From the IMG/VR virus record IMGVR_UViG_3300025030_000081, positions 1 to 64,000 of that record: a stretch of 64,000 nt of DNA; one strand, given 5' to 3'. The notes beneath the pieces were generated by a model. It ran no database searches. It worked only from the letters and a program-made list of their open reading frames with translations, and was not told the DNA's origin. This document shows, in pieces, positions 3,947 through 56,880 of this stretch (within the stretch, counting starts at the first letter, position 1; each line of letters begins with the position of its first letter). The translations under genes and the position numbers were made by a program. Source of the stretch: a virus.

Positions 3947-5449
3947 ATGACCATACTTCAAAATGCACTAGACTACCTGCATACGCTTTACAAGGCGACT
4001 GACGACCCCCCGTATGATTTTCAGGCGGTCCATACAACCGTAATTGATTTTACCTTGGAACACGGTCTAGCCCAGTGGCCACAGGCAGGCACAGGATATC
4101 GCTACTGGTTAGGGATAACTACCGTCGAACCAGAAAACCCATTTGTATTCGTCAGTAATGACGGGATAACGTGGGCACCGGCTCCAGGAACTACCCATCA
4201 GATGGATGATACTGGTGCAGACTGGAATATGTACGATGGATACGGCCCTGACTTTGATTTTTCAGAGGATATTGAGCTTGTCTACGACCCCTTAGCCGAT
4301 TGCATCCATGCATATTGGATGCACACGACATTACTTAGTAATCCGATACAGGGCGATGGGATCAGACATCGAACTATAAACAACAATCTGACGGTTTCAG
4401 CTAAAACAGCCATAGGCATTCCATGGGTAAACCATGAAATGTCCTCAAACTCCCCGACCGTGATACGCGAAGCTTCCGACAAGTGGCATATGTGGGGGAT
4501 CTATCAAGATGTTTCTTTGGACAGTGCCTCTAACCCGTTGCTTAGAAAACTGACCTACCGATTTGGTACTAGCCCTACGTCATGGGGAGAATATCAGCTA
4601 TGTGATATGGCCGTTGATCCAATGATTGCCTATCCCAATGATACGCCAAATCATATAACGGCAGAGCTTAACCCAACTATCCCAGGTCAGGTTGATCTTG
4701 TTATCCAAACCCTCCGCTGGCCACTAGAGGTTAATTATCTGAGCAAGGCGGCGCTGGTCCATGCCGTGACCCATCTATCAACGCCCACTGCTATCACTAC
4801 ACCGCTTGCTCCAACTCGGCTATTGGAGTACGCCCCGCTGAGTTGGGAGAAGCTGGGGCTCTACAGGTCGGGTTTTACCTTGCAGCTTGTTGGCACAGAG
4901 ATGATTATGAGGCTCTGGTACACAGGCGTAGAGGATTACATGCACCCCCGCATCGGCCTCACCTCCGGTGCGATATACGAAGTGGTTGACGGGGCAATAG
5001 TGCCGCCGCCTGATACCAGTGCACCGACAGTGACCGCGTTCACCCTCCCCACTACGTCTACAACTTTAGAGGTAGCATTAATAGCACTCACTGCAAGCGA
5101 GTCGGACTGTACCTTCATTCTGTCAGAGTCTGGAATTAAACCACAGGCCGGAGATGTGCGGTGGGGGGTAGCACCGACTAGTTATACGTTTAATTCCTCA
5201 GGCAGCAAAACCCTCTACGCATGGGCCAAGGACGCAGCGGGGAACGTGAGCGCGGGGGTGGGCGATACGGTGATGATTACGCTGGATACCGCCGGGGCTG
5301 GCTTACTTACCGGCGTCTCCACCGTAACGAGTGTAGGCAGCATTACCGGCATCGGCGTGGCAGCAATGGTGGGTCGCCAGATCAGAGCACCTAATGGGAC
5401 CATACGTATTTTGCGGAGAATCGACGGGACACTTATAACCAACCACTAA
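3947..5449 (+). CDS. putative receptor-binding/depolymerase protein (beta-propeller glycosidase-like N-terminus, Ig-like C-terminus)
   Basis: ENPFVFVSNDGITW Asp-box-like motif; C-terminal LYAWAKDAAGNVS Ig-like motif; lower GC in the N-terminal part. Confidence 0.55.
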   Translation: MTILQNALDYLHTLYKATDDPPYDFQAVHTTVIDFTLEHGLAQWPQAGTGYRYWLGITTVEPENPFVFVSNDGITWAPAPGTTHQMDDTGADWNMYDGYGPDFDFSEDIELVYDPLADCIHAYWMHTTLLSNPIQGDGIRHRTINNNLTVSAKTAIGIPWVNHEMSSNSPTVIREASDKWHMWGIYQDVSLDSASNPLLRKLTYRFGTSPTSWGEYQLCDMAVDPMIAYPNDTPNHITAELNPTIPGQVDLVIQTLRWPLEVNYLSKAALVHAVTHLSTPTAITTPLAPTRLLEYAPLSWEKLGLYRSGFTLQLVGTEMIMRLWYTGVEDYMHPRIGLTSGAIYEVVDGAIVPPPDTSAPTVTAFTLPTTSTTLEVALIALTASESDCTFILSESGIKPQAGDVRWGVAPTSYTFNSSGSKTLYAWAKDAAGNVSAGVGDTVMITLDTAGAGLLTGVSTVTSVGSITGIGVAAMVGRQIRAPNGTIRILRRIDGTLITNH

Positions 5450-8379: not shown

Positions 8380-11300
8380 ATGACAAAACTCGCTGATTGC
8401 ATCACAGCCCACGGTGTAAAAACCCACACGAGACTGCCGGCAGATGTCAAGGCTGCGGTGGCTGCAGGAGATACAGCTTTAGCTGTATCGACAATGCAGG
8501 CACACGTAGCCGCCTTGAAAGCCCTCAAGCAAACGATAGAGATCCGGCACGAAGAAAACAAAAAGGATTTCATGGCGCAGACCGTTAGCAAGACGTCCGC
8601 CGCCTCCTACGTTAACCGTGGTGCTGCAGATCCAACCAACGAGCTGAATCATTTCCAGGTGAAGAGCTTCTCCAAGATCTGGAAGAATCTGGTCCAGCGC
8701 GCGGGCAGTTTCGGTGCCGCAGTAGGTCTGTTGAGAGCTAAACCGGATCAGGTGACTCCCGGCGAGCAGGCTGTGCTGGAACACTTCATGACTGGTCCGG
8801 AGAGTTTCGGCAGGCAGATGAGCGCTACGATCAACGCGATCTTCAAGGCCAAAGGGATGCACGACGGACCGAAGGCGGCCAGCAGTTTTCCTTTCCGCTA
8901 CGAGGACATGATCCAGTACCTGCCGGTCAGGTACCCGGCGGAGTTCGGGGAGAAGTCCAATCCGAAGGTGGACGAGCAGCATGCCAGGGATAACGGAATC
9001 CTGGATGGCCCGACCAGGAGCGCCATAGCCGCCACAGCGTACGAGTGGATCGCCACGAGTGGCAGGAAGAGCATGGCTCAGACCGAGTCCTCTCTGGGGC
9101 GTTTGCTGGGCCTGCAGAAGGATGAACCACTCCCGGGTAATTCCTGGGAGCTCCTGGAGCACGCCGGCATGAACGCCGAGACCGTGGCCAGGCAGCTTGG
9201 GAAAACGATCCTACAGCGTCTCAGTATCGCACCGGGACCGAAGTCGGACTCACTGGCGCAAAGCAGGATGGAGGAGTCCCTTGGCTTCATGGCTCTGGCG
9301 GCGATGGAATCGATGGGAGTCATCGAGCGGCAGTACGTTATCGCCGATCATACGGAGAAAGCCAGAGCAGCCCTCATAGCAGCCGGTAAACCGGTCCCTG
9401 CGATCGGACTGAACGCCCTGAAAGAGGACCAGCAGCTGGAACCCGGTGAGCTCTTCTACACGGACAATGGCAGTCCTGAGGGGCCACAGGGGCTACTGAT
9501 GATGCGCCTGGTCAAGGTTGCCGACCTCGACCTGCTGACCGACATCGAGGAGCACTTCAAAGAAGGCCGGGCCGCCTTCGACAAGGTGTTCGCCAACGAG
9601 CCTCAGGATTTCGGCATGCAGTGGAAGGCCCAGGTGAGGAAGGCATTCAAGATCGGCAGCTCCAACGTCGAGGCCAACGCCGAGCAGACCCGGAACATCA
9701 ACAAGTACAGCTCCATCCCTTACCAGCGCAACCCGGAAGCGATCGGCTTCCTGAAGTCCATGTGGGGACTGGTTGAAGGGATGGAAAAGGGAGAAGGGCA
9801 GGACCGACTGAAAGCGGTATTCTACGAGGCACTGGGTGCGCCACCGGCCGAGAATCTGCTGAAGCTGCACAAGAAAGGGAACGAGGGAATCCGGCGGGGG
9901 ATCGAGCAGGACTTCAGGGACGTACTGAACTACGAGGATGAGCACGCGAAGCGGGCAGCCAACGGGGAGAGCACGGAGTTCTACCTGTCGTCGGATTTCA
10001 TGTCCAACATGCGCATGATCATGCGCGGTGACATCAACCCACAGAACTCCAAGATGCACCGGAGCCTGTTCGCCCCTACTGGATTCCAGACGACGTTCAA
10101 AAAGGATCCCAAAGGGAAGCTGGACCAGGCTTTCTTGGAAGCGGTGGCAGTGGCGTTCGACATCGAGACCGGCAAGGGGTTGATCGGCGATGCAGCGGCC
10201 CAGGTGGCCGGACTGATGGACATCATAACCAACCCGGGTAATGACAAGCATGAGGCAGTCACCGCGGCGATCAAGGCCATACAGGCTTACCAGACCACCG
10301 GAGAAATGACGAGCCAGGCCATGGAAGTAATCGCTGTCGGCTCTGCAAAGGTGGACAACAAGGTCACCGGTCTGAAGGGACTCTTCGAGTACGCCCGCTA
10401 CGCAGCTACTCCGGTAGGCGCCGAGTTCAGCACCGACATGCACGCCGAGATTGACGGGGTCAGCAACGGGGTCATCATCGGCATCCTGCAGCTGATTCCG
10501 GACAGCGCGAACAAGCGAGCTGTACTGGCTACCCTGGCCATGGGTGGCATCAGCACCAGCACAGTCAGGGCCGACCTGAACAAGCTCCTGATCCAGAACA
10601 ATCTCAACGACGCCTACCAGCGCATGGCCCAGGAATGGGCAAAAGAGATCCTGACCTTGAAGAAGAAATGGGACACCTCCGAGAAGAGCAAAGACAACGC
10701 GCTCTTTGAGAAGGCCGAGGCTCTGGGGAGGATTCTCGGGGAATTCCAGGACCCGCAGGGTGTCATCAACAAAACCATTCGCAACCTCTCCAAACCAAGA
10801 ACCATGCAGATCATCTACGGCGCCGGCATACGCAAACAGGTCCAGCTGCTGACGGGCGAGAATGTCCTGCATGACGGGATCTACAAGAAGGTCGAGAAGA
10901 TCATGGCCAGGGTCCACAAAGCCAACGCAGCAAACCCGGACCCGCTGGTAAAAGAAGACTTCGCTGCGCTGATGAGAGCCGTCCGGACGCTCACCGGCAA
11001 TTCTTCCTACCATGCGGACAGGTACTTCACCGGTGACCAAGAAACGACCATCGCCAACCTGCAGACGTTCCACTTGAAACCGGAACATATCAAGACCCTC
11101 AACCAGGCCGTCGCGGATACCTACGGGTTGGCCATGTCCAACGCGATTCAGACAGTCTACGGCACACTGATCGAGGCGCGCAAACCGTTGACCGCCGCGG
11201 TGCAGCTGGCAGTCACGACGTACAACACCATCCTCAAAAAGAAGGTCGACCTGCTGGTCGAGGCACACAAAGCCGACGCCACGTTCAAAGGGGATCCGGA

Positions 11301-14300
11301 GGTCATCACCAAGGAGGAGCTGGATAAGATCCTGGCTTCCATCGAGCACCTGATCCCCAAGATCAAGACGCCGCTGTACACCAAGGACAGCCCCAGCTAC
11401 CTGCCGATGGCCGAGGTGGGTAACAACCGGAGCTACACCAAGCAGGCCCGGGTCGTGCAGCAGTACCTGCAAAAGGGGCTGGTGCAGCATCAGGGTTACG
11501 CCGAGGGGATACCGTACCTGGAAGATCCCGGGATGTCACCCGTGGTCAAAGGGATCCAGATGCTGGATTCCATGATCGCCAACGGCTTGATGGGCCTGGA
11601 TACCCACATGCTCAACAACCACGACGGCTTCTCACACGGCATCGGGGACAGCGAGGTGATCGCCCAGGAGGCCAACAAGATATTCGCCGGGGCAATGACG
11701 GATTACAGTTTGGCCCAAGCCTTTGAAGAGATGCATCTCGAGCTGGCTGAAAAAGGCAAAGCCATGCTGGATGCACTGGGCGTCCAGCCTAAGGATTACC
11801 TGTGGGGAACCAGTAGGAACACCGATAAGCCCTCCGCCTTCACGGGTGGTCTGGTCGGTGACCAGGTGGTGTCCTTTGACCTGCTGGTGAGCATGGGACT
11901 GGCAAGCAAAGAGGATCGGGCCGCGTACGTCAAAGATGCACAAGAGCGCGGAGTGCCCTACCGGACCGCGGCACAGGAGTACGTCAATGACGTGATTGCG
12001 CGCCAGGGTATGCCAGATGCCAACTTCACCGAAAAGGTGTTGGCGCAGCTGACCAAGAACCTGGCAGAGATCGCCGAGCAGACCACACGCAACAAGAAAG
12101 AGGTGATGGACTCGGTACGCCAGTGGCACCAGTACCCGCACCACGGTACCGGGTACTTTGTGGATAACCCTGTAAATACCGGAGATAAGATCTTTGGAGA
12201 CATCGACACGAACACGGTGCTCTCCCATGATGCAAAGGCACGGGACAAGGACATAGCGCTTATCCAGGGATTCCAGGCGGAAGGTTACCACTCCTCACCC
12301 ACCGGTAACGTGTCGACCACCGAAGCCGACTACACCCAGCCCTCGCAGGTGATCGACAGCCAGAACGTCGTAGAGAGTTTCGATGCGCTTATCAGTATGG
12401 ATAGCAAGCTGGCGTACGCCAGTGTCCAGAACTCGCCAAGCCATGTCGATTACCTGCGGGGCGTCCTGAACTCGATCGTGTCCCGGGTAATGGGTCCGGT
12501 CGAGATGTTCATGGATCAGCACAAGATCAACAACGAGACGCAGGGGATGTACACGATCGGCGCCAACGGAACTCAGCGGATCTGGATCCAGACGCAGCAG
12601 AAGTCGGATCACCCGCTGGCGGGCATGCTGGGCCAGAGTATCCGGATGTCTCCGGCCGAGGTTTACGTGCACGAGCTGGTGCACCATATCACCCACACCG
12701 GCCTGAAGAACTTCCCACACCTGCAGAGGCAGGCATCAGCCCTTCGTGAGCTGTCCTTTCAGGAGTTCTCCAAAGCATACGGGGAGCATGCCTACCGGGT
12801 GTTCCTGAACGACCCGACGATCGACGTTGCCGACCCGGCCAACGCCTACGAGGTTGCCGCGGCGAAAGCCCGCTGGGAGTACGTGTTTAACACGAAACGC
12901 AAAGCCGACGGCAGCAATGCCGGCCTGGACGAGTTCATCTCCTTCGGGATGACCAACGAAAACTTCAAGCGCGAGCTGGGCAAGCTGCAGGTGAGCCAGG
13001 AGATCCTCAGCGCGCGCAAGTCGCTGAACACGATCTTCGAGAAGAACATCCAGCAGACGCTGGTCAACCTGTTCACCGCGGTCCTGGAGTTCATCTACCA
13101 GCGCTTCAACCAGCAGAGGCACTCGACCCGGGTCGACCAGGAACTGGAGAACCTGGTACGCGCCATCTCCTACGTGGACAGCAAGAACAAGAGCGTCCTG
13201 TGGAAGTTCACTGCTGATATGGAGGAGGCCATTACCGCGGTAAGTTTGCAGATTGACGAAAAGATTGTCGGCATGGTCAAAGCTGCCGTCGACAAGACCA
13301 AGGTGGGCAGCGCAATCAACCAGTTGAAGCAGTTTCCCCAGCTGAACAACATGCTCTCCCACCAGATGCGGATCGTGCTGCACTGGTACACCAGCCAGCA
13401 GCAGGGGCTGATCCCGAGCATCGTCACGGAGATGCAGGGGACGACCGATCGGATGCGCCCGTTCCACGACCAGCTCAGGATGCGCAACCATGTACTCGAT
13501 GCCGCCAAGAACGAAGCAACCCTGGTCGTCCGGGACAAGGTTAACTCCTGGTTCAAACAGGCGCTGACTCCGGCCCAGAAGACGGTGATAACCAAGGCGC
13601 TACTGAAGACCGATGTCGGTTCCTTACTGGATAAAGGCTTGTCGTCCCAGGCGATCACCGGTTACCTTGCCGAGGACACCCGGCGGGAAGCGCGGATCAC
13701 CGAGATCCTGAACCAGCTCCGAAACGATTCGGTACTGAAGGATTATGCGGTCTACTTCGAGAATGCCGCTGATGACCTCGGCTACTTCATGGTGCACAGC
13801 GCGCGTAAAACCAAAGACAGCATGCCGCTCATGAATGCCCACAATATCGTCAGCATGAGGCAGAGCAAGCATGCCGGGAAGCTCGCCGGTGAGAACTATG
13901 GCAGAGCCCTTGACCTGGTCGATCAGCTGGCTACCCTCTCCTCGCTGCGCTACGTACCCAAAGCGCAGAGACTGGCTGCGGCAGCTCTCATGACCAGTGA
14001 GTGGCCGGCCATCGAGAACGTCCTGAACCAGCACAACAAGCTCAAGGACGATGCCTTTCGGGATCTCTTCCACGGCAATCCCGTGAAGATGACCAAAGGC
14101 TACGTCGAGCAGATCCTCAACAGCAGGGTCAAGTTCGAGCAGGCCCATGTCGCCAATCCGGATGACCCGAATGACCCGACCCGGAAGCGGTTCGAGGATG
14201 CCGGCTACTACATGCAGGCGACCCCGATTCCCCGGGATCCGGCAGATCCGGTCCAGGACGACATCTACATGTTCCGCAACATGCTTGGGGCGGTGAACGA

Positions 14301-16032
14301 CCTGCAGCCCGGGATTGCATCGTACTCGCAGAATATCGGACGAGGCGCCACAGGCTACGACATACAGCAACAGTTGGGAAACACCTATGATCCTGCCCAA
14401 GAAGCCGAGCGGAACAACCAGATCGTTCTGGCGGATACCTTGAACACGATCGACAACCTGTTCAAGGTCCGTCCTCCTGCTAAACAGGCGTTAGGATCCG
14501 GCAAGAACTACATGATCCCCAAGTTTAATGACAAGGGCAACATTGCCGAGATGCGCTACATGATGTCCGAGGCAACCAAGGATATAGTGTTTGAGCAGTT
14601 CTCCGAGTTCGATGCGGTGCTGGGGAGAATGGCCGCCACAATTATCGACAAGACGGTGACACCGGAGATCAACGCCAATGTGATCGAAGCGCTGAAGGAT
14701 GTTGCCGACCATAAGGATTATGGCCGTAAAGCGCTGCCGGAAGTCTTCGTGGAGATCTCACCCTGGTCGCCGGAGAAACGCTACCGGGACATCTATCATC
14801 AGCTGCCTCCCAATGCCCGGACCAAGATCCTGTCCATCTGGGGTGAGAACCGAATGTGGGTGGCGCAGGACATGGTGGATCTGGCTTTCGGCCAGAGGAA
14901 GTACTCGGTCAGCGAGACCTTCAGCAAGAACAAGAAGGAAAGCAACCTGTTTGAGAAGATGTTCGTAGAGGTGCTGAAACTGGCTCTGGGAGATCACAAT
15001 CCCTTGAGCGAACCGCCACCAGGAGCCAAGGCGAATGACTCCGTACAGGGCCGTGCAGTGCGCCGTACGACGGCAGTCTACAACACGCTTGCCCAAGTGA
15101 CGAAGCTAGGGAAAGCCAACATCGTGGTGCGTAACCTGGGGGTCGTGTTCGGCAACCACAATAGCAACATGATGCTGCTCAAGTCGATGGGCATCCCCCT
15201 AGAGAAGATCGTCCTTTACAACAAGGAGGCGATGACCGGGATCCTGCAGTACCAGAAGGACAAGCACGAGCTCGAGTCCTGGCGCCTTGAGTTGGAGAAT
15301 ACCCAACGGAGACGGTCCATCACCCCGGCCGAGAAAGACATCCAGACAAGAAACATCAGCCGGCGGATCGCCGTGCTGGAAAACCAGCTGGCCCTGAATA
15401 AGGCAACGCCTCTGGTTAAGGAAGGTGCGATGCCGTCCATCGTCGACGATTTCGATACGGATTACGTACCGCCGCCGTTCACTTACGGGGTGGATGCGCT
15501 CCTGGACAAGAGTCTCGATCTGCTGCCGAAAGGGCTACAGAGGGCCGGTCGGACGCTGTTCATGACCACCGACACCGAGGGGTTCCGGATGATGAACAAC
15601 GCGGTCAAGCTGACTGACTTCACCGGGCGGTACATCCTCTACAAGCACCTGACTGCCAAGGGTATGGATCACAACCTGGCTGTCTCAACAGTCATGGATA
15701 AGTTCATCAACTTTGACTTGCCAACTCATCGAATGATAAGTATGGTGAACGACATTGGACTAGTGATGTTTTCCAAGTACCAGCTGAGGGTGCTCAAACA
15801 TATCAAGGATGTCTTGAAAGAGCACCCGTTCACGGCGCTGGCCACTTTTCTGATTGGTTCACACATAGGTGACAACAACATCATCAATTCGATACCGTTC
15901 GTAACCAAAGATGTCATGCAGAATGTCGGCAATGCTGCATCGCTGACCGGCACAGTCTGGGATACCGCGGTGATTGACGGCGTGCAGTATGTTGGCGGCC
16001 TGGCCGCTGATGTGGTTACTCCAGGAACGTGA
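8380..16032 (+). CDS. virion-encapsidated RNA polymerase (N4 gp50-like), polymerase core plus C-terminal domain
   Basis: NPQNSKMHR; motif A EIDGVSNG; motif B RNLSKPRTMQIIYGAG; motif C NHDG; HELVH zincin-like motif in the C-terminal domain; only one Cys in 2550 aa; GAGG RBS. Confidence 0.93.
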   Translation: MTKLADCITAHGVKTHTRLPADVKAAVAAGDTALAVSTMQAHVAALKALKQTIEIRHEENKKDFMAQTVSKTSAASYVNRGAADPTNELNHFQVKSFSKIWKNLVQRAGSFGAAVGLLRAKPDQVTPGEQAVLEHFMTGPESFGRQMSATINAIFKAKGMHDGPKAASSFPFRYEDMIQYLPVRYPAEFGEKSNPKVDEQHARDNGILDGPTRSAIAATAYEWIATSGRKSMAQTESSLGRLLGLQKDEPLPGNSWELLEHAGMNAETVARQLGKTILQRLSIAPGPKSDSLAQSRMEESLGFMALAAMESMGVIERQYVIADHTEKARAALIAAGKPVPAIGLNALKEDQQLEPGELFYTDNGSPEGPQGLLMMRLVKVADLDLLTDIEEHFKEGRAAFDKVFANEPQDFGMQWKAQVRKAFKIGSSNVEANAEQTRNINKYSSIPYQRNPEAIGFLKSMWGLVEGMEKGEGQDRLKAVFYEALGAPPAENLLKLHKKGNEGIRRGIEQDFRDVLNYEDEHAKRAANGESTEFYLSSDFMSNMRMIMRGDINPQNSKMHRSLFAPTGFQTTFKKDPKGKLDQAFLEAVAVAFDIETGKGLIGDAAAQVAGLMDIITNPGNDKHEAVTAAIKAIQAYQTTGEMTSQAMEVIAVGSAKVDNKVTGLKGLFEYARYAATPVGAEFSTDMHAEIDGVSNGVIIGILQLIPDSANKRAVLATLAMGGISTSTVRADLNKLLIQNNLNDAYQRMAQEWAKEILTLKKKWDTSEKSKDNALFEKAEALGRILGEFQDPQGVINKTIRNLSKPRTMQIIYGAGIRKQVQLLTGENVLHDGIYKKVEKIMARVHKANAANPDPLVKEDFAALMRAVRTLTGNSSYHADRYFTGDQETTIANLQTFHLKPEHIKTLNQAVADTYGLAMSNAIQTVYGTLIEARKPLTAAVQLAVTTYNTILKKKVDLLVEAHKADATFKGDPEVITKEELDKILASIEHLIPKIKTPLYTKDSPSYLPMAEVGNNRSYTKQARVVQQYLQKGLVQHQGYAEGIPYLEDPGMSPVVKGIQMLDSMIANGLMGLDTHMLNNHDGFSHGIGDSEVIAQEANKIFAGAMTDYSLAQAFEEMHLELAEKGKAMLDALGVQPKDYLWGTSRNTDKPSAFTGGLVGDQVVSFDLLVSMGLASKEDRAAYVKDAQERGVPYRTAAQEYVNDVIARQGMPDANFTEKVLAQLTKNLAEIAEQTTRNKKEVMDSVRQWHQYPHHGTGYFVDNPVNTGDKIFGDIDTNTVLSHDAKARDKDIALIQGFQAEGYHSSPTGNVSTTEADYTQPSQVIDSQNVVESFDALISMDSKLAYASVQNSPSHVDYLRGVLNSIVSRVMGPVEMFMDQHKINNETQGMYTIGANGTQRIWIQTQQKSDHPLAGMLGQSIRMSPAEVYVHELVHHITHTGLKNFPHLQRQASALRELSFQEFSKAYGEHAYRVFLNDPTIDVADPANAYEVAAAKARWEYVFNTKRKADGSNAGLDEFISFGMTNENFKRELGKLQVSQEILSARKSLNTIFEKNIQQTLVNLFTAVLEFIYQRFNQQRHSTRVDQELENLVRAISYVDSKNKSVLWKFTADMEEAITAVSLQIDEKIVGMVKAAVDKTKVGSAINQLKQFPQLNNMLSHQMRIVLHWYTSQQQGLIPSIVTEMQGTTDRMRPFHDQLRMRNHVLDAAKNEATLVVRDKVNSWFKQALTPAQKTVITKALLKTDVGSLLDKGLSSQAITGYLAEDTRREARITEILNQLRNDSVLKDYAVYFENAADDLGYFMVHSARKTKDSMPLMNAHNIVSMRQSKHAGKLAGENYGRALDLVDQLATLSSLRYVPKAQRLAAAALMTSEWPAIENVLNQHNKLKDDAFRDLFHGNPVKMTKGYVEQILNSRVKFEQAHVANPDDPNDPTRKRFEDAGYYMQATPIPRDPADPVQDDIYMFRNMLGAVNDLQPGIASYSQNIGRGATGYDIQQQLGNTYDPAQEAERNNQIVLADTLNTIDNLFKVRPPAKQALGSGKNYMIPKFNDKGNIAEMRYMMSEATKDIVFEQFSEFDAVLGRMAATIIDKTVTPEINANVIEALKDVADHKDYGRKALPEVFVEISPWSPEKRYRDIYHQLPPNARTKILSIWGENRMWVAQDMVDLAFGQRKYSVSETFSKNKKESNLFEKMFVEVLKLALGDHNPLSEPPPGAKANDSVQGRAVRRTTAVYNTLAQVTKLGKANIVVRNLGVVFGNHNSNMMLLKSMGIPLEKIVLYNKEAMTGILQYQKDKHELESWRLELENTQRRRSITPAEKDIQTRNISRRIAVLENQLALNKATPLVKEGAMPSIVDDFDTDYVPPPFTYGVDALLDKSLDLLPKGLQRAGRTLFMTTDTEGFRMMNNAVKLTDFTGRYILYKHLTAKGMDHNLAVSTVMDKFINFDLPTHRMISMVNDIGLVMFSKYQLRVLKHIKDVLKEHPFTALATFLIGSHIGDNNIINSIPFVTKDVMQNVGNAASLTGTVWDTAVIDGVQYVGGLAADVVTPGT

Positions 16033-23398: not shown

Positions 23399-26300
23399 CT
23401 AGTCACCTCCGTTCTTGTAGTACTTCTTCTGCACGGTCTTACCGATGGTCTGTGCGATCTCGTCGCTGCTGAGCGGGTTCTCCAACTTCTCGTTCAAGCT
23501 GGCGATCTTCATGTCAATGTCCGCCAGGCTGTAGCCCGAGTCGACCAGCATCAGGCCGTACTTCAGGAGCTGGTTGTTGCGGTTGCCCCCGACGGTGTTA
23601 AGCATGAACCAGCGCTCGACGCCGCTCATGTTCTGGTGGTTCAGGACGAGCTCCTTGCGCTCGTCGTTCTTGCTGGTGCGCGGGATGAAGAGCAGGGCGT
23701 CCAGCATCTCCCCGCTGTTGGTGTGGATCTCCGTGCCGTCGTAGGTCGCCCATTTGCGGGCGCGCTGCCCGGTGTCCGTATCGCACTCGAAGGGGAGCCA
23801 GTCGAAGATGTTCCGCATGAACTCCTTGTAGTCCGTCTCGTTCAGCTTGAGGACGTAGTTCATCGGCATGACCAGCCGGAAGCGATGCTCCTGCGGGGTA
23901 TGGCGTTTGGTGGTGTGGATCACGTAGGTGTAGTCCTTGAGCAGGATCTTCACCGTATCTATCTTTACCCCGCCGTCGACATCCAGTACCAGCAGGTTGA
24001 AGCCGTTGACCATCTCCTCTTCCGCGCGCCGGCCGCTGATGGTGTGGTGACTGCACCAGTGGCGATCGGTCATTTTGAACAGCTCGGGGAGCTTGTCGAA
24101 GGGTGCCTGGACGTTCTCGTAACCGACTGCGAAGTCCTTGCTGTGGGACAGGTACATCTTATCCAGGCTGGTCGGCATGAGTGTTTCACCGGAGATGAAT
24201 TCGATGTTGTTCTCGAACTTCCGCTTGATGATGACGGAATTCTTGTAGCCCCAGGCAATCGCCAGCTGCAGCAGATCCACCTTGAAAGCCTGGGATCCCT
24301 TGTAGAAGGGGAGGCTCTCGGTCAGATCGACATGGGTGGCTTCCCGGTTGATGCTGGCCAGGTACTTGGCCAGCTTCACGTAATTCTTGTCCTGGTTCAT
24401 CATCTGCTTAAAAGCCTTGCCGGATTCTTCGCACATGGCGATGGCATGGTACAGGTTGTCCTCGGTGATCTCGCCGTGGCCGTCGATGAAGGCAAGGCCG
24501 CCTGCCAGCTTCAGTGCCTTGAAGTAGCGGTGGGCCAGTTCAGCTTTGAGCATCTCCTCGTGGTCGCCCAGCTTGTCGGCGATGTCCTCGCAATGGAGCT
24601 TGTACTCGATGAGCAGCAGGCTGACATCCTTGGATACCTGGATCTCCTTGCCGTAGTTGATCTCGGCGGCAAGTATGGCGAACCGGTTGGAGAGCGAGAC
24701 GATCAGGGCTTCCGCATTGGAGCTGGTGAGCTTGTCGTAGACGTCGGCAGCGGTCAGATGCTTGTTCCTGCCGGTCCCCTTGGTGTAGCCGAAGAAGCAG
24801 CGTCGGCCGTAACCCGTCTGGATAAAGGTCCAGAACTCGTCTTCGGTTTTGGCGCCGTCGAACAGTTTCGACGGGGTGCCGAACAGCATCAGGTTGGTGG
24901 GGGTCTTACCCTCGATCTCCTCGGAGCGGACGTTCTCCTTGGTGTTCTTGGTCAGCTTCTGTTTGACCTTGCCCACGTCGAAGAGCTCCAGGAAAGTCCC
25001 CAGGACGTCGACGTTACCCAGCAGGTTGGAGCCGATCTCGTCGATCTCCAGGTTCATGGCGCCGATGCCTGCCATCAGGAGCTTGTGGCGCATCTGCTTG
25101 ACCGCGGCAGTGGTACCCGAATCAAACGAGAAGGCCATTTTGCCCAGGCTTTCATACTCCTTCTGGACGTTGGCGTACATCTCGTCGAACTCGATCATCG
25201 GCGTGGTAAGGCTGGGATTCTGGTTGTGGATATTGGTTCGTTTTACCGCCAGTCCGCGGAGGTTCTTCTCGGCCAGCTGCGGCAGAGTCTCCTCAAAGAA
25301 GACCGTGCGGAACTTGCTGATGATGTGGTCCTCCAGGATATTGGTGCTGTGGCCCTTCGTTTGTGTTCAGGATGAGTCGTTAATTCATCCCCGTCATTTT
25401 ATGACTGCTCCACATCTCTGTGGAGACCAGACTATATCTTAAAGTCTTGTTTTGCATTTAATGCATCCAGATTGGTCAAAGGTTTGAAGATAGGATTGTT
25501 CTCTTGTTACTTCATTTCCACAAGAACAGCGTACATTAAAGTATTTTTTAGTCCCCCGATATTCAGCAAAACTCAGAATTGTCCAGTTATTGATTTGTGA
25601 CCCAATCAACTTTTCAATTATGCTGTCTGCTTTAATACCGGAGATACCTCTTGTACGCCCACCTTTAGATTGTGCTGCATGCAACCTGCCCTGTTTCTGG
25701 GCATGGACCATGTTACCTGAATGTGTTGTCCACTCAAGGTTGTCTACACAATTATTGGTTGGATCGTTATCTTTATGGTTCACTTGAGGCAACATTAATA
25801 TATTGGGTATGAACGCTTGCCCTACTAACTGGTGTACCAAATACCGTTTAGTAGTGTGCCCTTTACACAATGTGACCCTATGGTAACCATTTTTGCCTAC
25901 ATCAGGTTTCAGCTGTTTTTCTGGATAGTATTGTTCTTTGCCATTCTTGTTGATAATAATCCTGGGCAAAGACTTAACATCACCGAGTTTATTCACCTGA
26001 TATAAGCCTTCGTAACCTTTTATATCTTGATACATCAAACACCCCTTTACCTCAAATTTTGCCTAACTTAGCATAGCTTTTGGTAAAGGACAATACTTTA
26101 TTCCCATTTCGGATCACTTGATCCTACGCCTTGCGGCTAGTCGTTGAACCTTCTCCTGTACGGAGCTTGGCTGCTGATTGTCCATAGCTATTAAATTGTC
26201 AGGGGTCGCCAACTCATTTCTGGTTGGTATCCTATTAATAGATTAACTGGAGATCCCAGCAATTAAAGAATTTTTCCTTATGCACTCACATGCATAGGCG

Positions 26301-26536
26301 GCTAGATAGTACCAACCGATGCCACTGATCCCCAGGTTTATCCCGTAGAAGTTGATGGGGATGTCTCCCCGGTCTTTCGTCTTGATATGGACGCGCATGG
26401 TTGCCGCCATCTTGCAGACGTAGTAACAGACCATCATTCGGAAGAACTGAGGCAGGGAGTTCTGTGTCTTTTCACACAAGAGCTCCACTATCTGTTCTGT
26501 CGTCGGATGGAAGGTCAGCTTGCTGAGATCCCTCAT
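23399..26536 (-). CDS. DNA primase (N4 gp43-like); exons 26536..26315 and 25357..23399, about 726 aa spliced
   Basis: Joining the exons restores Walker A GISGIG|KGHS in frame; DEIGSNL Walker B; LDVDGG and HRFRL prim-pol motifs; C-terminal GNRNNQL. Confidence 0.88.
25358..26314 (-). mobile_element. group I intron (957 nt) in the primase gene
   Basis: The 5' exon ends in U (GGT) and the intron ends in G. P AATTGCTGGGA, Q AATCAGCAGCC, R GTTCAACGACTA and S AAGATATAGTC occur in order. Confidence 0.92.
25439..26038 (-). CDS. intron-encoded NUMOD4/HNH homing endonuclease
   Basis: IKGYEGLYQVNKLGDVKS (NUMOD4); VHQLV..AFIPN...VNHKD...NN..NLEW; AT-rich. Confidence 0.92.
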   Translation of the reverse strand: MMYQDIKGYEGLYQVNKLGDVKSLPRIIINKNGKEQYYPEKQLKPDVGKNGYHRVTLCKGHTTKRYLVHQLVGQAFIPNILMLPQVNHKDNDPTNNCVDNLEWTTHSGNMVHAQKQGRLHAAQSKGGRTRGISGIKADSIIEKLIGSQINNWTILSFAEYRGTKKYFNVRCSCGNEVTREQSYLQTFDQSGCIKCKTRL

Positions 26537-28917: not shown

Positions 28918-29085
28918 TTACACTCCGCGTACGTTTTTGAGTTTGTCGATGTACTCATTGAGCTGCTGTTCGGTAAGGTCAATCCCGTGCAGCTCTTTGA
29001 GCTTCTTAAGGACGTCATCTGAACAGTAGGTGGTGTGGGCGAGGACGGATAGGAACTGCAGGCGTTGGGCTTCGGTGACGCTCAT
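28918..29085 (-). CDS. small hypothetical protein
   Basis: GGAGG RBS before MSVTEAQR; ends DLTEQQLNEYIDKLKNVRGV. Confidence 0.55.
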   Translation of the reverse strand: MSVTEAQRLQFLSVLAHTTYCSDDVLKKLKELHGIDLTEQQLNEYIDKLKNVRGV

Positions 29086-29807
29086 GGATCCTCCGGCAGC
29101 TTGCACAGTTCAATGATGTCATGGAGGCCCATGTCATTCTTCAGTGTAGTGGCTGTGGACCAGTCGGGGTAGTAGATGTCGAGATTCGCGCCCAGCTTGA
29201 CGGTTGGGTGCTGCAGTTCTACCAGTTCGCACCATTTCATGCAAGCGATAAGATTGTCGTTGATCCATTTTGTTATCCCGGCCGTATTGCGCCAGAACAC
29301 GTATATTGCATCGTGGATCTGGGCGCAGAGGAAGATGTCGTAGATGTACGGCGAGGCCCATACCCTCTCCCGGAATTCGTTGGCTGCCCGGGTGTTGAGG
29401 AGCCCGTACGACTGACCCAGCATATTGCCTGCTGTGCGTCCTTCGGCGGCCGCCTTGTAGTTGAGCTTGCCCGGGCCGTTCAGCTCGAGTAAAGGCGTCC
29501 TGAGGCGCAAGCCGAAGGCGCCCGTGACGTAGCCGTCGATGCATGCCTGCTGGAGCTTATCCGCTACCCACTGATCGGATACCTTGTAGAGCTCATGGTA
29601 GTTAGATTCGATGGCCAACGCCGCGGTCTTGTCCAGGCCCAGGTTGTTCATCAGGCCGTGGAAGGTGCCCTGGTAGGTGAGGAGGAAGGTGGGCGCCTTG
29701 GAGTCCTGACGCTGTTTCGGGTAGAGCTTCTTGATGCTGTTGATGATGTCTGGTCGCAATCCATCATCAATTTCTTCAATAATTTCATTACCGGCAAGTT
29801 GTAGCAT
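29082..29807 (-). CDS. family A DNA polymerase, C-terminal part
   Basis: Motif B RQDSKAPTFLLTYQG, RTAGN, motif C QIHDAIY; AAGGA RBS. Confidence 0.92.
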   Translation of the reverse strand: MLQLAGNEIIEEIDDGLRPDIINSIKKLYPKQRQDSKAPTFLLTYQGTFHGLMNNLGLDKTAALAIESNYHELYKVSDQWVADKLQQACIDGYVTGAFGLRLRTPLLELNGPGKLNYKAAAEGRTAGNMLGQSYGLLNTRAANEFRERVWASPYIYDIFLCAQIHDAIYVFWRNTAGITKWINDNLIACMKWCELVELQHPTVKLGANLDIYYPDWSTATTLKNDMGLHDIIELCKLPEDP

Positions 29808-29821
29808 AATTGTCCTTGGAA

Positions 29822-30322
29822 CTAAGGTTGGGGCTGTAAATTTCTCCCGTGATTAGGATGGTATCCATACCGTATTTCTGCACTTTTTCTGGCATCGATA
29901 GCCTCCTGCTTATCACTAAAACGACCCAAGGGTATGGGCCTAGATTCATGCCAAATCATTGCTACCCATTTGTTACGAGTAACTGACCAAGATACACCTA
30001 CAACCCCTGATTTATTATTTTTTTGAATAGTACAGTTGCGATTGTTGTCTGTCATGGAAGCATCAAACAGATTTCCCCATTTATTATTTAATCTGTTATG
30101 ATCATCGTGGTCCACATATCTGGGCAATACTCCAGTTTTCATCAAGTAAATGGCTCGATGTGTTTTTAAAACTTTGCCTTTAAAACCGAAGTATCTGTAT
30201 CCATCAGAACTGACATAGCCAGCTTCTTCTCCGATTTTACATTTACCTGATTGTTTTTTCCAGATGAGCTTTCCTGTTATTTCATCGTAATGAAAGTACT
30301 CATGTAACTCGGTGCTTGTCAT
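29822..30322 (-). CDS. HNH-AP2 homing endonuclease splitting the DNA polymerase gene
   Basis: FHYDEITGKLIW, HRAIY..VDHDDHNRLNN, NNKSGVVGVSW AP2 motif; GGGAG RBS; AT-rich. Confidence 0.9.
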   Translation of the reverse strand: MTSTELHEYFHYDEITGKLIWKKQSGKCKIGEEAGYVSSDGYRYFGFKGKVLKTHRAIYLMKTGVLPRYVDHDDHNRLNNKWGNLFDASMTDNNRNCTIQKNNKSGVVGVSWSVTRNKWVAMIWHESRPIPLGRFSDKQEAIDARKSAEIRYGYHPNHGRNLQPQP

Positions 30323-32357
30323 AGTATTCTCCCATAGGGCGTTGATTACCGTCAGGGCATAGTACCATCGTATCCGCAGTAAGTATATGGGTTTTTCCAT
30401 CAACAGTTACTTTAAATTTTCGACCACTGTTTACTGCTTGTTGTAAATCCGGCATGGTATCTTTAAAGTAACTATAGGCGCGGATGGAGTGGCCGTCGAA
30501 ACCGTCGAGGTAGACCTTCATCTTGTTCGGATCCCTGGTGGTCAGGGCTGAGACCATATCCTCCAGGGAATTGAAATCAGCGCCGCCGAAGAGCCATCCG
30601 GCGATGCAGCCGAAGCAAGTTTTAATCAGCTCCCCCCAAGTGGATTTTGCAGGGATGTTGGTTAGGTTGGGGTTGGAACTGGACAGGCGTCCGGATACGG
30701 TCCCACCCAGGTTGAAGTTTCCATAGAGGCGCCAGCTGCTATCCGGCATCTGTACGGCCTTCTCGAAGGCAGGGATGAACGAAGTCAGGATCTTGTCCAC
30801 TTGAGCCAAACCGATCAGGGATTCGATGATCTCCAGGATGTCCTGATTCTGGGTCTGGTGCAGCAGTTTCTCCAGGGTGTCCCCGCCGGTTGCCGGCTGA
30901 CCGGTATCGGTGGTATCCAGGACCGGTAATCCCAGGTAGGTGTAGAGCAGGTTGGCTACCTGTTGGCCGCTGTTCGGGTTGAACTCCAGACGGGCCACCC
31001 TCGGGTCGTCCATGTCGAAGACTTTCTTCTTGGCGGCCGCGGTGAACTCGGCGCATTTCTGAGCCTTCACTTCCAACTGGAATTCCCGGATCAGTTGGGA
31101 GTTGTCGAGCTTGGCCTTGTACCCATCACTCAGCGTAGTCAGGGCTTGCTTGACTCTGGCCACCTCATCCGGGAAGATCGGCATGCCGGACAGCTCGGTC
31201 TGCAGCAGGGTGATCAGGGAAGGCTTGAACAGCTCCTCGTAGATCCCCATCTGGTTGCTGCTGATCATGCGCGTGTAGTACTTGTGGTAGACGTACCAGG
31301 TGCCCAGGGTGTCCTTGCCGTTGTACTCCAGCAGGCGGGGCAGCTCGATCTTGTCGGTATCCTCGATGTTCTCCTCGGCGTAATCGCCCAGGTAATCCGC
31401 GGCGAGCACCTTGAGTTTCAGGACGTTTTCCACAGCGTTGTTGGTGGCGAGGTACGTGATCAGCTTGGTGTCGTCGAAGTTCCTGGTCAGGATCTGGATC
31501 CCCTGGATCATACCCCGGTAGTCCTGGAGGTCGGTCATCCAGAGCTCATAAACCAGAACCTTGAAGTCGTAGCCGGCGTTGTGTGCGATCAGTCTGCCCC
31601 GGTAGTTCTCGAAGAAAACCTTGAGCATGTTCTTTACGTAGCTGCCGAACGATTGGGTGAAGACGGTGGTTACGTCTTCTGGAAAAGAGCCGCGGTCCAC
31701 CGGGATCGAAATGAAGTTGTGCTGGTCCCAGGCGAAGGCAATGGTGGCGATCCCGCAGTTCCAGAATTCCAGACTGCGGCTCTCGATGTCGACCGTCAGC
31801 GCAGGCTTGGTGTGGAGAAATTCCAGGGCATCGGAGATCTCCGCCAGCGTCATCGGGTACCGGGCGGAATGGATGACGTTGGTTCCCGGGGCGACGTACG
31901 CTCCCGACAGGTGCTGCTTCAGATAGGCCAGAGCGGTGTCGACTTCTTTCGCGGTATGCGGGTTGTACTTGGCCGCGTTGTAGTTGGGCGCGTAGAAGAC
32001 GTCGAAAGCGTCCTCGTACCCGGTGAGGCTGGATTTGACTGCGTATCCGATGTAGTTGGTGGCTGCCTTCTGCTTGCCGGTGAGGTACTTGAAGTACTTC
32101 GCGTCGGTCACCAGGATGGTGCCGATGCACAGCGACTTGACCGAATGGAGCAGCGTCTGGAGATGCTCCTTGGCCAGCGCTGCCTGGCATTTATCGTTGT
32201 CGTCGTACCAGAGGCTGTACGCTATGAACCCGGCCGGGTTGGCGCCGATCGGGTCGATGTAGGCCGACTTGATCTTTCCGCTGTTGAAGCTGGTTTCCTT
32301 GACGAGGATGGCGACCGATGCTGAAGCGGGGTCAGCCCCGTAAGTGGCGTGCTGCAT
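30300..32357 (-). CDS. family A DNA polymerase, N-terminal part (3'-5' exonuclease plus motif A)
   Basis: VDIES, HNAGYD, YNGKD, GTVSGRLSS, motif A GADFNSLED, DGHS. Confidence 0.93.
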   Translation of the reverse strand: MQHATYGADPASASVAILVKETSFNSGKIKSAYIDPIGANPAGFIAYSLWYDDNDKCQAALAKEHLQTLLHSVKSLCIGTILVTDAKYFKYLTGKQKAATNYIGYAVKSSLTGYEDAFDVFYAPNYNAAKYNPHTAKEVDTALAYLKQHLSGAYVAPGTNVIHSARYPMTLAEISDALEFLHTKPALTVDIESRSLEFWNCGIATIAFAWDQHNFISIPVDRGSFPEDVTTVFTQSFGSYVKNMLKVFFENYRGRLIAHNAGYDFKVLVYELWMTDLQDYRGMIQGIQILTRNFDDTKLITYLATNNAVENVLKLKVLAADYLGDYAEENIEDTDKIELPRLLEYNGKDTLGTWYVYHKYYTRMISSNQMGIYEELFKPSLITLLQTELSGMPIFPDEVARVKQALTTLSDGYKAKLDNSQLIREFQLEVKAQKCAEFTAAAKKKVFDMDDPRVARLEFNPNSGQQVANLLYTYLGLPVLDTTDTGQPATGGDTLEKLLHQTQNQDILEIIESLIGLAQVDKILTSFIPAFEKAVQMPDSSWRLYGNFNLGGTVSGRLSSSNPNLTNIPAKSTWGELIKTCFGCIAGWLFGGADFNSLEDMVSALTTRDPNKMKVYLDGFDGHSIRAYSYFKDTMPDLQQAVNSGRKFKVTVDGKTHILTADTMVLCPDGNQRPMGEYYDKHRVT

Positions 32358-32611: not shown

Positions 32612-32812
32612 TTATTTACGTTTTGATGCTTGCCAAGCTTCATCCAGAATCTCCTCCGTCGGGTTGAAGCTGTCGACGTTGTCCGCAGCCCAGAGAATGT
32701 ACCCGGGATCTTCCTCGAGAACCTCCGTGATTGATTCGTGCTTATGCTTGCCGAAAGGGAAGACGTAATCGTAGTTATGCTTCAGTAGATCACCTATGGT
32801 CGTCATGTGCAT
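32612..32812 (-). CDS. small FPFGKH-motif protein (exodeoxyribonuclease X C-terminal/DUF3820-like)
   Basis: FPFGKHK...DPGYILW. Confidence 0.7.
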   Translation of the reverse strand: MHMTTIGDLLKHNYDYVFPFGKHKHESITEVLEEDPGYILWAADNVDSFNPTEEILDEAWQASKRK

Positions 32813-33067
32813 CCTTTACGGGCTTTCCACCCATTCGCTGGTTTGCTGGCTCTAAGTCGCCAGGTACTTTGCCCGTCCCCTCAACGCAGTCTGCACCGCC
32901 TCGATCTCAATAATCTTCTGATGAGGGTCCTGTTGTTCCAGGTACGCCTTGCGGCTCCGCATGTCCCCGTGGGCTGTTATCGACATGCGAATTTTTATGG
33001 TAGCCACAGACTATTGCCACCTGTCTTAACCGACCGGGATTCGGGCAGGCTGGCTCAATGGTGTGCT

Positions 33068-33116
33068 GGCACTCTGCATTACGCGCGGGCTTGTGACCGC
33101 CGTCGGCTGCATTTCC
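33068..33116 (-). ncRNA. twister ribozyme candidate (type P1)
   Basis: GG A|AA UGCA GC CGACG GCGG UCAC AA GC CCGC GCGUAA UGCA GA GUG CC: P2, P4, both pseudoknots and the conserved GA are present; P1 has only 2 bp. Confidence 0.75.
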
Positions 33117-33321
33117 TCCCGTGGTGTGGCATTCCAGGCCGGTGTTTTGGTCGCTGTCCTAACGAGTCCTTGGGCGACTCTTCCACGGGGCTAGTCAGAG
33201 GTTGTCCCCAGCGTGAAGGCTGTGCCAACTTGACCCCAAATTGGTGCCGGCTTCCCACCGGCTTGAGGATTCGCTGCTTTTAGTATGAAGGTGATCTGCA
33301 TCCTTAATATTGCACCTTGAA

Positions 33322-33418
33322 TTGCCAGTCTCTCCCGGCTGTCGCGCCACTTTAGCGTATAGCATCGGTTCCAGCACTCATGTCACCGAAAACGGGAGTT
33401 GCCGTCTCTCCGGCTGTC
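33322..33418 (-). repeat. two copies of a GACAGCCGG(G)AGAGAC(T)GGCAA hairpin motif
   Basis: Copies at 33322..33343 and 33399..33418; the second stem is one base pair shorter. Confidence 0.7.
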
Positions 33419-33460
33419 ACCCCTCATACAGATCTTGGCGAGGTTACCGTGAGGCGAAGG

Positions 33461-33890: not shown

Positions 33891-34055
33891 TTACAGGGCC
33901 ACCGACAGACCGCGAAACGCCTTCAGTTCCTTGGCGATCTCCAGGGATGTTTTGCGCGCCCGGGTGCCGGCTGCCTTGTTGCCGTTCAGCTGCTTGGCCG
34001 AATCCGTTTTGAACTCTTCCATCAGCTTGCTAATCTTTTCCAGATGCTGTTCCAT
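33891..34055 (-). CDS. histone H1-like (Hc1-type) protein, 54 aa
   Basis: MEQHLEKISKLMEEFKTDSAKQLNGNKAAGTRARKTSLEIAKELKAFR contains the GNKAAGTRARKxSLE signature; AGGAGG RBS; missed by the ORF track. Confidence 0.85.
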   Translation of the reverse strand: MEQHLEKISKLMEEFKTDSAKQLNGNKAAGTRARKTSLEIAKELKAFRGLSVAL

Positions 34056-46892: not shown

Positions 46893-48101
46893 TTATGAGA
46901 GGAAGTAGTCGGCTTCCATGATGTGGTCGCCCAGATCGTCGGACAGTTTGGCGTAGTTGTAGCGGCGGTCGTTCCTGAGCTCCCTGATGATCTGGACGCC
47001 GACGTTGCTGTCGGCCAGCTCCGCCAGGATGTCCCGGTAGACCTCCCGCATCTCGTTGGCGTAGTTGGGGTGGCACTTGAATGCATCGTGGATGGTGAGG
47101 ACCGGGAAGCTTGGTCTGGTGAGGGTTTCCTGGATCAAGGAAAGGAGCTCTTCAAGGTAACCAACGGTGAACTGACTGATGTTCTCCGGGTTGACGATCT
47201 CGACACCGCGCAGGCTGAGGAAGCCGTGGTTCGCTGCGTTGATCTCGAAGGGGTGGGTGGGTTCGGTAACCCGGGAGGTGAGTTTCTGATACTGGATCAA
47301 TGCGGCTACGTCCTCGAGGTGATCCCGGTCGTAGTTGCAGCGCCTGACGGTCTCCCTGACGAGGAAGCCGTCAACCGAGTGGGTGGCATTGGCGGCCACT
47401 GCCAAGCCGTACTCGGAGCCGATGTTCTCCTCGTAGACGTAGGTGAGGGTGGCGTGATCCAGCTCGTCGATCTCGATCTTGGACTTCATCTTCTGAAGCA
47501 CCGGTACCTTCGCCTGATAGCCGTCAGGCAGAGTGTTGTGGTGGAAGAGGGCATTGGGCTGCCATGAGGCCAAGAGCTCCTGCATGAGGAAGCAGGCGCC
47601 CGGAGCGACCATTTCCTGAGCCTGATAGAAGGCGTAGAGCTCAGGGGACTCGTCTCCGAAGATCCGCTTGGGAGTAGCCACGCTCCCATAGTAGTGAGTC
47701 ATCGTCGCGGATTTGGCGTCCGATCTCGGCACCACCACCTCGCTCGGCAAGAGCTCGTTCATGGCTGCCGTGCACTGGCCGTACATGTCCATGCGCTTCT
47801 TACCGGTGACCCCGGTGTTGGCGCTGGTCACCGGGCAGCCGGTGAGGATACCCAGTATCGAGATCCCCGAGGCGCAGGCGTCCAGCTCAACCAGAAAGCC
47901 AGAAGGTCTCCCGGCCAGAGCGTCCTCCAGAGCCAGCACACCGGCAAGGAACTGGGCGGGCTTCTCGGCCTGAGCCACCTTGGAACGCAGATCCTTGATC
48001 GAATCCACCCAAGCGATGCGCTGTCTGAAGCTCTTCTTGTCCAGCCCGTAGTTGTTGGCGATGTCGATCTTGATGTATTCAAGCGCTGAAAATTTCATCA
48101 T
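46893..48101 (-). CDS. N4-like RNA polymerase II subunit 2 (gp16-like)
   Basis: LDACASG motif A, RSDAKSATMTHYYGS motif B, ANATHSVDG, TIHDAF motif C. Confidence 0.92.
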   Translation of the reverse strand: MMKFSALEYIKIDIANNYGLDKKSFRQRIAWVDSIKDLRSKVAQAEKPAQFLAGVLALEDALAGRPSGFLVELDACASGISILGILTGCPVTSANTGVTGKKRMDMYGQCTAAMNELLPSEVVVPRSDAKSATMTHYYGSVATPKRIFGDESPELYAFYQAQEMVAPGACFLMQELLASWQPNALFHHNTLPDGYQAKVPVLQKMKSKIEIDELDHATLTYVYEENIGSEYGLAVAANATHSVDGFLVRETVRRCNYDRDHLEDVAALIQYQKLTSRVTEPTHPFEINAANHGFLSLRGVEIVNPENISQFTVGYLEELLSLIQETLTRPSFPVLTIHDAFKCHPNYANEMREVYRDILAELADSNVGVQIIRELRNDRRYNYAKLSDDLGDHIMEADYFLS

Positions 48102-56789: not shown

Positions 56790-56880
56790 GCAAAAGAAAA
56801 GGGCTGGATGGCGGCCAGCCCTTCTCCACTTCGGAGGATACCACAAGCAAGGAGGGAACTTGTGATGGGGCTGTTATATT

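Follow-up and report, generated by a model that had tools for sequence, protein, structure and literature searches.

Gene content of the locus

Record IMGVR_UViG_3300025030_000081 of IMG/VR is a complete 75.9-kb genome of an uncultured phage, recovered from a groundwater metagenome. Its positions 1 to 64,000 form the stretch of DNA analysed here (64,000 nucleotides, the window). The phage is N4-like and contains a virion RNA polymerase (8380-16032), an RNAPII subunit (46893-48101) and the terminase and portal genes. The GC content here is 54.8%. The public sequencing runs listed as carrying it are two DNA runs, which may derive from the source groundwater sample, and no RNA run is among them. 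The site is surrounded by minus-strand genes only and the ribozyme is on the minus strand as well, co-directional with its neighbours.

The minus-strand replication block comprises, in transcription order, a helicase, YopX, an Hc1 histone-like gene of 54 amino acids (34055-33891) and a 142-aa ORF (33889-33461). These are followed by about 650 nt without a credible gene, which contain the twister. Downstream of this gap are an ExoX-like gene of 66 amino acids (32812-32612), a 78-aa ORF and then PolA, split by an HNH gene. The original prediction had placed the ribozyme upstream of the polymerase genes and this location is correct, PolA starting at 32357, about 710 nt downstream of the twister with two small ORFs between. 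The previous gene ends 343 nt before the twister and the next begins 253 nt after it, versus class medians of 32 nt to the preceding gene and 30 nt to the following one (phage twister copies among the matches listed).

Some other elements of the window were characterized in passing. The 54-aa histone H1-like Hc1 protein (33891-34055, minus) was identified with Pfam PF07432 (E 1.4e-16) and is shorter than the usual ORF-length cut-off; a homologue is present in a related phage, L003, at 843-1016. The family-A DNA polymerase is found in two ORFs within 29082-32357 (minus), the N part with the exonuclease in 32357-30300 and the C part in 29807-29082, separated by an HNH_3 endonuclease ORF (30403-29822) where intron models gave no match. 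A group I intron at 25408-26324 (minus, 40% GC) is slightly under the Rfam threshold (RF00028, 42.1 bits vs GA 50, E 2.3e-7), contains an ORF for a NUMOD4 and HNH_3 endonuclease (26038-25439) and adjoins the primase gene (phrog_2135, 23399-25198). Finally, a terminator-like hairpin at 56790-56825 (minus) gave a weak match to ctRNA_p42d (31.9 bits vs GA 50, E 0.004) and is probably a mere intrinsic terminator.

Table 1. Parts of the twister and of the adjoining structured RNAs, in positions of the window
Feature	Positions	Strand	Basis or remark
Whole type-P1 twister, no P3 or P5	33066..33118	minus	RF03160, 33.8 bits, model 1-68 of 68; class model R2, 57.9 bits
Catalytic core, 44 nt, A+1 to end of GAGUG	33070..33113	minus	blastn similarity bounded exactly here
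Predicted scissile bond, A33114 (-1) / A33113 (+1)	33113..33114	minus	RF03160 alignment position
P1 5' strand, GG	33115..33116	minus	pairs G33116-C33068 and G33115-C33069; 2 bp only, then two mismatches
P1 3' strand, CC	33068..33069	minus	sequence; MFE pairing
P2 5' strand, UGCA	33108..33111	minus	pairs with 33075-33078; aligned as P2 by cmscan
P2 3' strand, UGCA	33075..33078	minus	pairs with 33108-33111
T2 (PK1) 5' half, GC	33106..33107	minus	complementary to G33090/C33089 in loop L4
P4 5' strand, GCGG	33097..33100	minus	pairs with 33085-33088
P4 3' strand, CCGC	33085..33088	minus	pairs with 33097-33100
Loop L4, UCACAAGC	33089..33096	minus	T1 half CAC (33095-33093) and T2 half GC (33090-33089)
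L1 3' strand, GAGUG	33070..33074	minus	G33074, general base by analogy; A33073; GUG (33072-33070), T1 partner of CAC
D domain	33118..33189	minus	closed by 7-bp helix, 33189-33183 with 33124-33118; MFE of every context folded
Module C, structured non-coding RNA of about 250 nt	32815..33062	minus	adjoins the ribozyme on its 3' side; identity to L003 (543-800) about 70%
Modules A, A' and B, non-coding hairpins	33195..33460	minus	partly common to L002 and L003, with compensatory changes

Architecture of the ribozyme

The minus strand from 33118 to 33066 reads GAGG-AAA-UGCA-GC-CGACG-GCGG-UCACAAGC-CCGC-GCGUAA-UGCA-GAGUG-CCAG, exactly as it had been described, and its parts are listed in Table 1. All the assignments of the original prediction were verified: the UGCA/UGCA P2, the GCGG/CCGC P4, the CAC/GUG and GC/GC pseudoknots and the conserved GA. 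The cut that it predicted between 33114 and 33113 agrees with the RF03160 alignment, and the two weaknesses it conceded, a P1 of 2 bp and an A at position -1, are indeed present in the sequence.

Loop L4 is the RF03160 consensus UCCCAAGC (G-U-C-C-C-A-A-G-C-C) with the exception of the middle T1 base. Pseudoknot T1 (PK2) pairs C33095, A33094 and C33093 with G33072, U33071 and G33070, so that CAC/GUG in place of the consensus CCC/GGG is a compensatory change. Second copies in the same phage loci present CGC/GCG, CCC/GGG and CUC/GAG, an illustration and not a proof, complementarity having been required by the script. The conserved nucleotides of L1 and L4 (A33113, A33112, G33074, A33073 and A33092-C33089) are all present. 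The catalytic roles of A(+1) as general acid and of the G as general base come from published twister work (PMC11662667, PMC5408937), and A(+1), A(+2), the general-base G and the A-A-G-C of L4 are positions named as critical (PMC11662667).

Rfam match

The Rfam scan of the window at gathering thresholds gave no match. With a permissive cmscan, the twister-P1 family RF03160, which the original prediction had named as the check to be made, matched at full length, aligned end to end over its 68 positions, though at 33.8 bits it falls short of the gathering score of 67.2 bits. The E value was 2.2e-5 when 801 nt were scanned, 0.0017 when the entire window was scanned with all 4227 families and 4.9e-7 when this family alone was run on the 75.9-kb genome. 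The only other match at the site was a lower-scoring, overlapping one to a family of the same clan. No other ribozyme family, hammerhead included, was matched at the site or elsewhere in the 64-kb window in this permissive scan.

The low score is mainly due to the deletion of the 17-position P3 insert and to CAC/GUG in T1 instead of CCC/GGG, a compensatory change which is penalised twice because the covariance model has no pseudoknots. The other P3-less phage twisters scored with Rfam were likewise under the gathering score (11 of 11, 33.3-59.5 bits), including the one in locus L038 despite its perfect 5-bp P1. The sub-threshold score thus belongs to the architecture as such and does not mark this copy as defective.

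Related twisters in uncultured phages

A search pattern built on the 3' half of this twister core identified more than 113 loci in IMG/VR. The loci were fished with a window-derived pattern, and about 20 of 55 positions are therefore common by design. The pattern did not specify the U-A-A, the complementary P2 strand or the G-C of T2, all of which were identified on its upstream side in almost all the loci listed.

The 1.7-kb region was used as blastn query against the fetched IMG/VR loci. All similarity lay between 33113, the first nucleotide past the cut, and 33070, where T1 ends. The best match is in locus L012 (4365-4408), an unrelated phage contig of 26.5% GC, where all 44 nucleotides are identical (E 8.8e-16). 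Core identity is 95% in L071 and L064, 93% in L101, L085 and L011, and 91% in L116, L055, L039 and L057. A class covariance model (R2) built from 52 P3-less copies, with the window and L012 left out, scored 57.9 bits at the site (E about 2.5e-15 with a rough calibration). The same model found no second match and no decayed extra copies in the 64-kb window. The twister is the single ribozyme of the genome, as scanned with Rfam over the whole 75.9 kb and with R2 in the 64-kb window.

The structure was tested on an alignment of 54 P3-less sequences against the full structure with both pseudoknots. Standard pairs are formed by 94% of the cells, versus 21-47% with slid partners, and the observed covariation score was reached by none of 500 shuffles. 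Complementarity in P2 and T1 was required by the filters, which leaves P1 and the two outer P4 pairs as the sole free tests in this alignment. Both covary strongly: the outer P4 pairs have 26 and 6 double changes and are formed in 107 of 108 cells, and P1 is paired in 79% of cells with compensatory changes at all five positions. The T2 pairs are invariant in the 54 members. UGCA/UGCA is the commonest P2 (97 of 137 copies among the matches listed), and the linkers of 7 nt (5') and 9 nt (3') are those of L012, L011, L071 and L116.

By sequence, the site belongs to a numerous group of almost identical twisters, all without P3, carried by contigs of uncultured phages. None of the twister-bearing contigs presented close protein similarity to this phage. 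Among GenBank phages (50,697 records), blastn gave no match for the 1.3-kb region and none for the 53-nt ribozyme at E 0.01; the 33-nt matches obtained with the 53-nt twister at E 10, in tail genes of Rhodobacter phages, are spurious.

Chance likeness, or a region that is instead the 158-aa plus-strand ORF 32807..33283, would leave no ribozyme at the site. This ORF, a mechanical one, does run across the site on the other strand, and the Rfam match scored under the gathering threshold. Nevertheless, the ORF has no Pfam or PHROG match, is antisense to the minus-strand gene block and overlaps RNA-level covariation. The independent Rfam model gave E values from 1.7e-3 to 4.9e-7, and the 44/44 identity with other phage twisters is bounded exactly by the core. 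This reading is hardly credible and can be taken as effectively refuted.

Other features of the class were recorded in the same loci. Twisters with CAC/GUG as T1 are numerous in the IMG/VR loci L005-L117, and copies without P3 make up 60 of 137 (about 44%) among the matches listed. Two to four twister copies were found in 28 of 106 loci among the matches listed. In AT-rich phages, such as L012 (26.5% GC), the twisters are GC-rich islands between genes. A RAGATH-1 hammerhead-like match (36.4 bits, sub-threshold) was identified at 4563-4645 of the twister-bearing locus L012, and RAGATH-28 RNAs were identified in the twister loci L116 (2925-3011, 58.4 bits, above GA) and L071 (7506-7590, 40.7 bits). 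RAGATH RNAs beside twisters are the known clustering of ribozymes and ribozyme-associated RNAs.

The idea that P1 masks a ribosome-binding site was considered and rejected. SD-like words are indeed enriched in the P1 3' strand of the class (25% versus 3%), but the real SD is usually further downstream, and the idea is inapplicable to the copy of the window.

Deviations from the class and predicted folding

Two deviations distinguish this copy. The A at -1 (A33114) is unique among the 137 listed class copies, of which 134 have a U, and a P1 with at most 2 contiguous pairs was found in 26 of the 137. In published work, P1 is dispensable, and a 'mini-twister' that removes just one nucleotide is nearly as fast as the wild type; the -1 base shows less conservation and tolerates replacement by 2-aminopurine (PMC5408937). 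In a high-throughput assay (CHiTA) of about 1,900 natural twisters, P1 imperfections were without effect and all four -1 bases were tolerated, A giving a mean fraction cleaved of 0.72 versus 0.76 for twisters without imperfections (PMC11662667). That assay found cleavage impaired by changes at A+1, A+2, the general-base G, PK1 or PK2 (PMC11662667), and none of these sensitive positions is altered in this twister. The highest activity was that of twisters lacking auxiliary stems (0.85), and those with an upstream P0 hairpin had a mean of 0.40, both in vitro (PMC11662667).

The MFE structure of the isolated 53-mer is the twister secondary structure, with a pair probability of 0.91 for P1 and 0.97-0.99 for P2. 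The P1 pairs are unstable in longer folding contexts. In contexts up to +/-200 nt the pair probability is 0.5-0.99 for P2 and 0.8-0.98 for P4, and in the full 653-nt context P2 drops to 0.11-0.14 and P4 to 0.44-0.46, a long-range prediction that is unreliable and ignores co-transcriptional folding.

Structured RNAs around the ribozyme

The segment specific to the window is about 135 nt long (33200..33066) and comprises the D domain followed by the ribozyme. The D-domain helix ends one nucleotide before P1, which is the position of the optional P0. A stable hairpin at the P0 position was identified in 77% of the class copies among the matches listed versus 18% of random controls.

On the 3' side of the ribozyme is module C, with at least 5 helices and compensatory changes in 12 of the 51 predicted pairs (two-sequence alignment of the window and L003). 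Its conserved blocks are in different reading frames in the two phages. Module C precedes the ExoX-like gene here and the Hc1 gene in L003, where the Hc1 homologue follows it directly. It gave no Rfam match, and a pattern scan of IMG/VR for module C matched only L003. A small ORF within module C (44-51 aa, 33007..32852) was discarded, its conserved blocks being in different frames and a stop being present in L003.

On the 5' side are modules A, A' and B. The A-type hairpins, GACAGCCGG-GAGAGA-CUGGC, occur in two copies here and one each in L002 and L003 (500-540), with compensatory stem changes. Module B is the hairpin CAAGCCGG...CCGGCACCAAU, common to the window and L002, where the hairpins of both types lie within 3440-3775. 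Modules A, A' and B matched no Rfam family at E up to 10. A tRNA-like nature of the modules was also rejected: ARAGORN identified none in the window, and when its thresholds were lowered for the region it made calls on the opposite strand only and none on the sense strand. A stem AGCCA/UGGCU-ACCA was abandoned as well, covariation with L003 supporting a different helix (GCCA.CCUG with CAGG.UGGC).

L002 is the closest relative by PolA (80% amino-acid identity), has a gap of only 330 nt and carries modules A and B. L003 (PolA 66% identical) carries one A hairpin and module C. As far as these alignments go, the gap is a mosaic of structured modules found in different combinations in related phages.

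An active twister could serve as the processing module of a non-coding RNA array, with A, A', B and D on one side and the twister and C on the other, and not in mRNA processing. The 650-nt stretch would in that case be a modular operon of phage non-coding RNAs, with the twister as processing joint and modules exchanged between phages there. The spacing of 343 and 253 nt from the gene neighbours, far from coding starts and stops, leaves room for reading the twister as a separator of discrete non-coding RNAs, and it lies exactly at a module junction. The modules are independent in the relatives (A and B in L002, A and C in L003); module C has its 12 compensatory pairs out of 51, no conserved frame and a different following gene in each of the two phages; and the upstream product would end in the 7-bp helix. 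Against this, each module is known from two sequences only, none belongs to an Rfam family or has a tRNA-like fold by ARAGORN, and the relatives carry modules without the ribozyme, so that the modules do not need it. A promoter and terminator scan identified none on the minus strand and no consensus bracketing the array, and the modules are equally explicable as a long structured leader of the polymerase operon. The array, both as a role for the twister and as a description of the 650-nt stretch, is considered unlikely. If it were true, cleavage would release a multi-hairpin RNA, about 345 nt long, whose cyclic-phosphate end the 7-bp helix would close, and the second product would be an RNA of about 300 nt formed by the twister and module C, both acting as discrete RNAs.

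Absence from the closest relatives

No twister was identified in L002 or L003, either at the locus or anywhere in their records. The core pattern scan found none in the PolA-bearing IMG/VR and metagenome loci L002-L004 and L119-L123, Rfam found none in L002-L004, and a further model (R1) found none, not even a decayed copy, in L002, L003, L120 and L121. Absence from the two closest relatives means that conservation by descent is not demonstrable. For the same reason the twister was probably gained by recombination at a junction of RNA modules.

A recent gain could also have left a passenger, an intact-looking or weakly active copy brought by recombination and without a role in the phage. The twister is missing from both closest relatives and is the sole ribozyme of the genome; its A at -1, minimal P1 and placement far from gene ends are atypical, and its core is identical to copies of unrelated phages, as would be consistent with recent horizontal transfer. 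On the other hand, none of the 44 core bases differs from the copy in the unrelated phage, and no decay is therefore visible. Both deviations are at positions reported as tolerant, and the P0-like helix directly upstream is the usual architecture of the class. A passenger without function is judged quite improbable.

Proposed mechanism

As judged from its sequence, the element at 33118..33066 (minus) is a genuine type-P1 twister in the minimal P1-P2-P4 form, a known ribozyme class. By analogy with that class, it is almost certainly able to cut the transcript of the replication genes at one defined bond. Processing of this transcript or separation of RNA modules would fit the anatomy of the locus. 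The preferred explanation as a whole, a genuine twister in the leftward 'middle' block that cleaves itself as the class does and separates the upstream RNA from the polymerase message, is regarded as likely.

Following the class mechanism, the double-pseudoknot fold would form during transcription. The 2'-OH of A33114 would attack the phosphate between 33114 and 33113, A33113 acting as the general acid and G33074 as the general base, so that the upstream RNA would end in a 2',3'-cyclic phosphate and the downstream RNA would begin with a 5'-OH. From the anatomy of the locus, the upstream product would be a structured non-coding RNA of about 345 nt ending in the 7-bp helix and AGGA, with a 3' end that may be nuclease-resistant like the P0 hairpins of the class. 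Its downstream counterpart would start with the ribozyme fold and run through the 250-nt module C into the ExoX-like gene, the 78-aa ORF and the split PolA. In this way the polymerase message would likely be uncoupled from the upstream genes in its stability and translation, with no host nuclease needed. Such an uncoupling role has been proposed in the literature for bacterial and phage twisters, as yet unproven, and their biological role is still described as undetermined (PMC6765202).

Relation to known ribozymes

The closest known system is twister type P1 (RF03160; Roth et al. 2014, as reviewed in PMC5408937), whose minimal P1-P2-P4 form is exemplified by the crystallised O. sativa twister. 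The element shares with type P1 the order P1, scissile N-A, P2, T2 half, P4 and a loop U-C-N-C-A-A-G-C, followed by U-A-A, P2', G-A with the T1 half, and P1'. Like the minimal O. sativa type it has both pseudoknots and the catalytic A(+1) and G, and lacks P3 and P5. It differs from type P1 in T1 (CAC/GUG, not CCC/GGG), in the -1 base (A, not U), in the 2-bp P1, in the sub-threshold Rfam score and in the 3' strand of L2, which has one A fewer and two extra bases.

Likeness is greatest with the P3-less CAC/GUG twisters of IMG/VR (L012 4359-4414, L071, L064, L011 and L116), whose core is 91-100% identical over 44 nt. Both have a structured helix directly upstream and are co-directional with the flanking genes. 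Those twisters are usually about 30 nt from the flanking genes, often multicopy and alongside hammerhead or RAGATH RNAs, whereas the one described here is a single copy, embedded in a mosaic of 650 non-coding nucleotides, and its N4-like phage has no relationship to those contigs.

The engineered mini-twister without P1 (Kosutic et al. 2015, as reviewed in PMC5408937) presents near wild-type cleavage and an exposed, replaceable -1 base. It is an engineered molecule, whereas here the weak P1 occurs naturally and has a 7-bp helix next to it on the upstream side. Phage twister-sister, hammerhead and other small nucleolytic ribozymes are alike in chemistry, size range and intergenic phage context. 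In twister-sister the cut is in the opposite strand of the loop and the two pseudoknots are missing (PMC5408937); the site, unlike a twister-sister, carries both T1 and T2.

Significance

The element adds a new member to a known ribozyme class and leaves the definition of twister unchanged. Minimal P3-less phage twisters, with more than 113 loci, fall systematically under the RF03160 gathering score and are consequently missed by routine annotation. To these the present case adds an intact twister in an N4-like phage, placed where structured RNA modules that are shuffled independently meet, and not tightly between two genes. It is well delimited and may be a useful test case for ribozyme function in phage transcripts.
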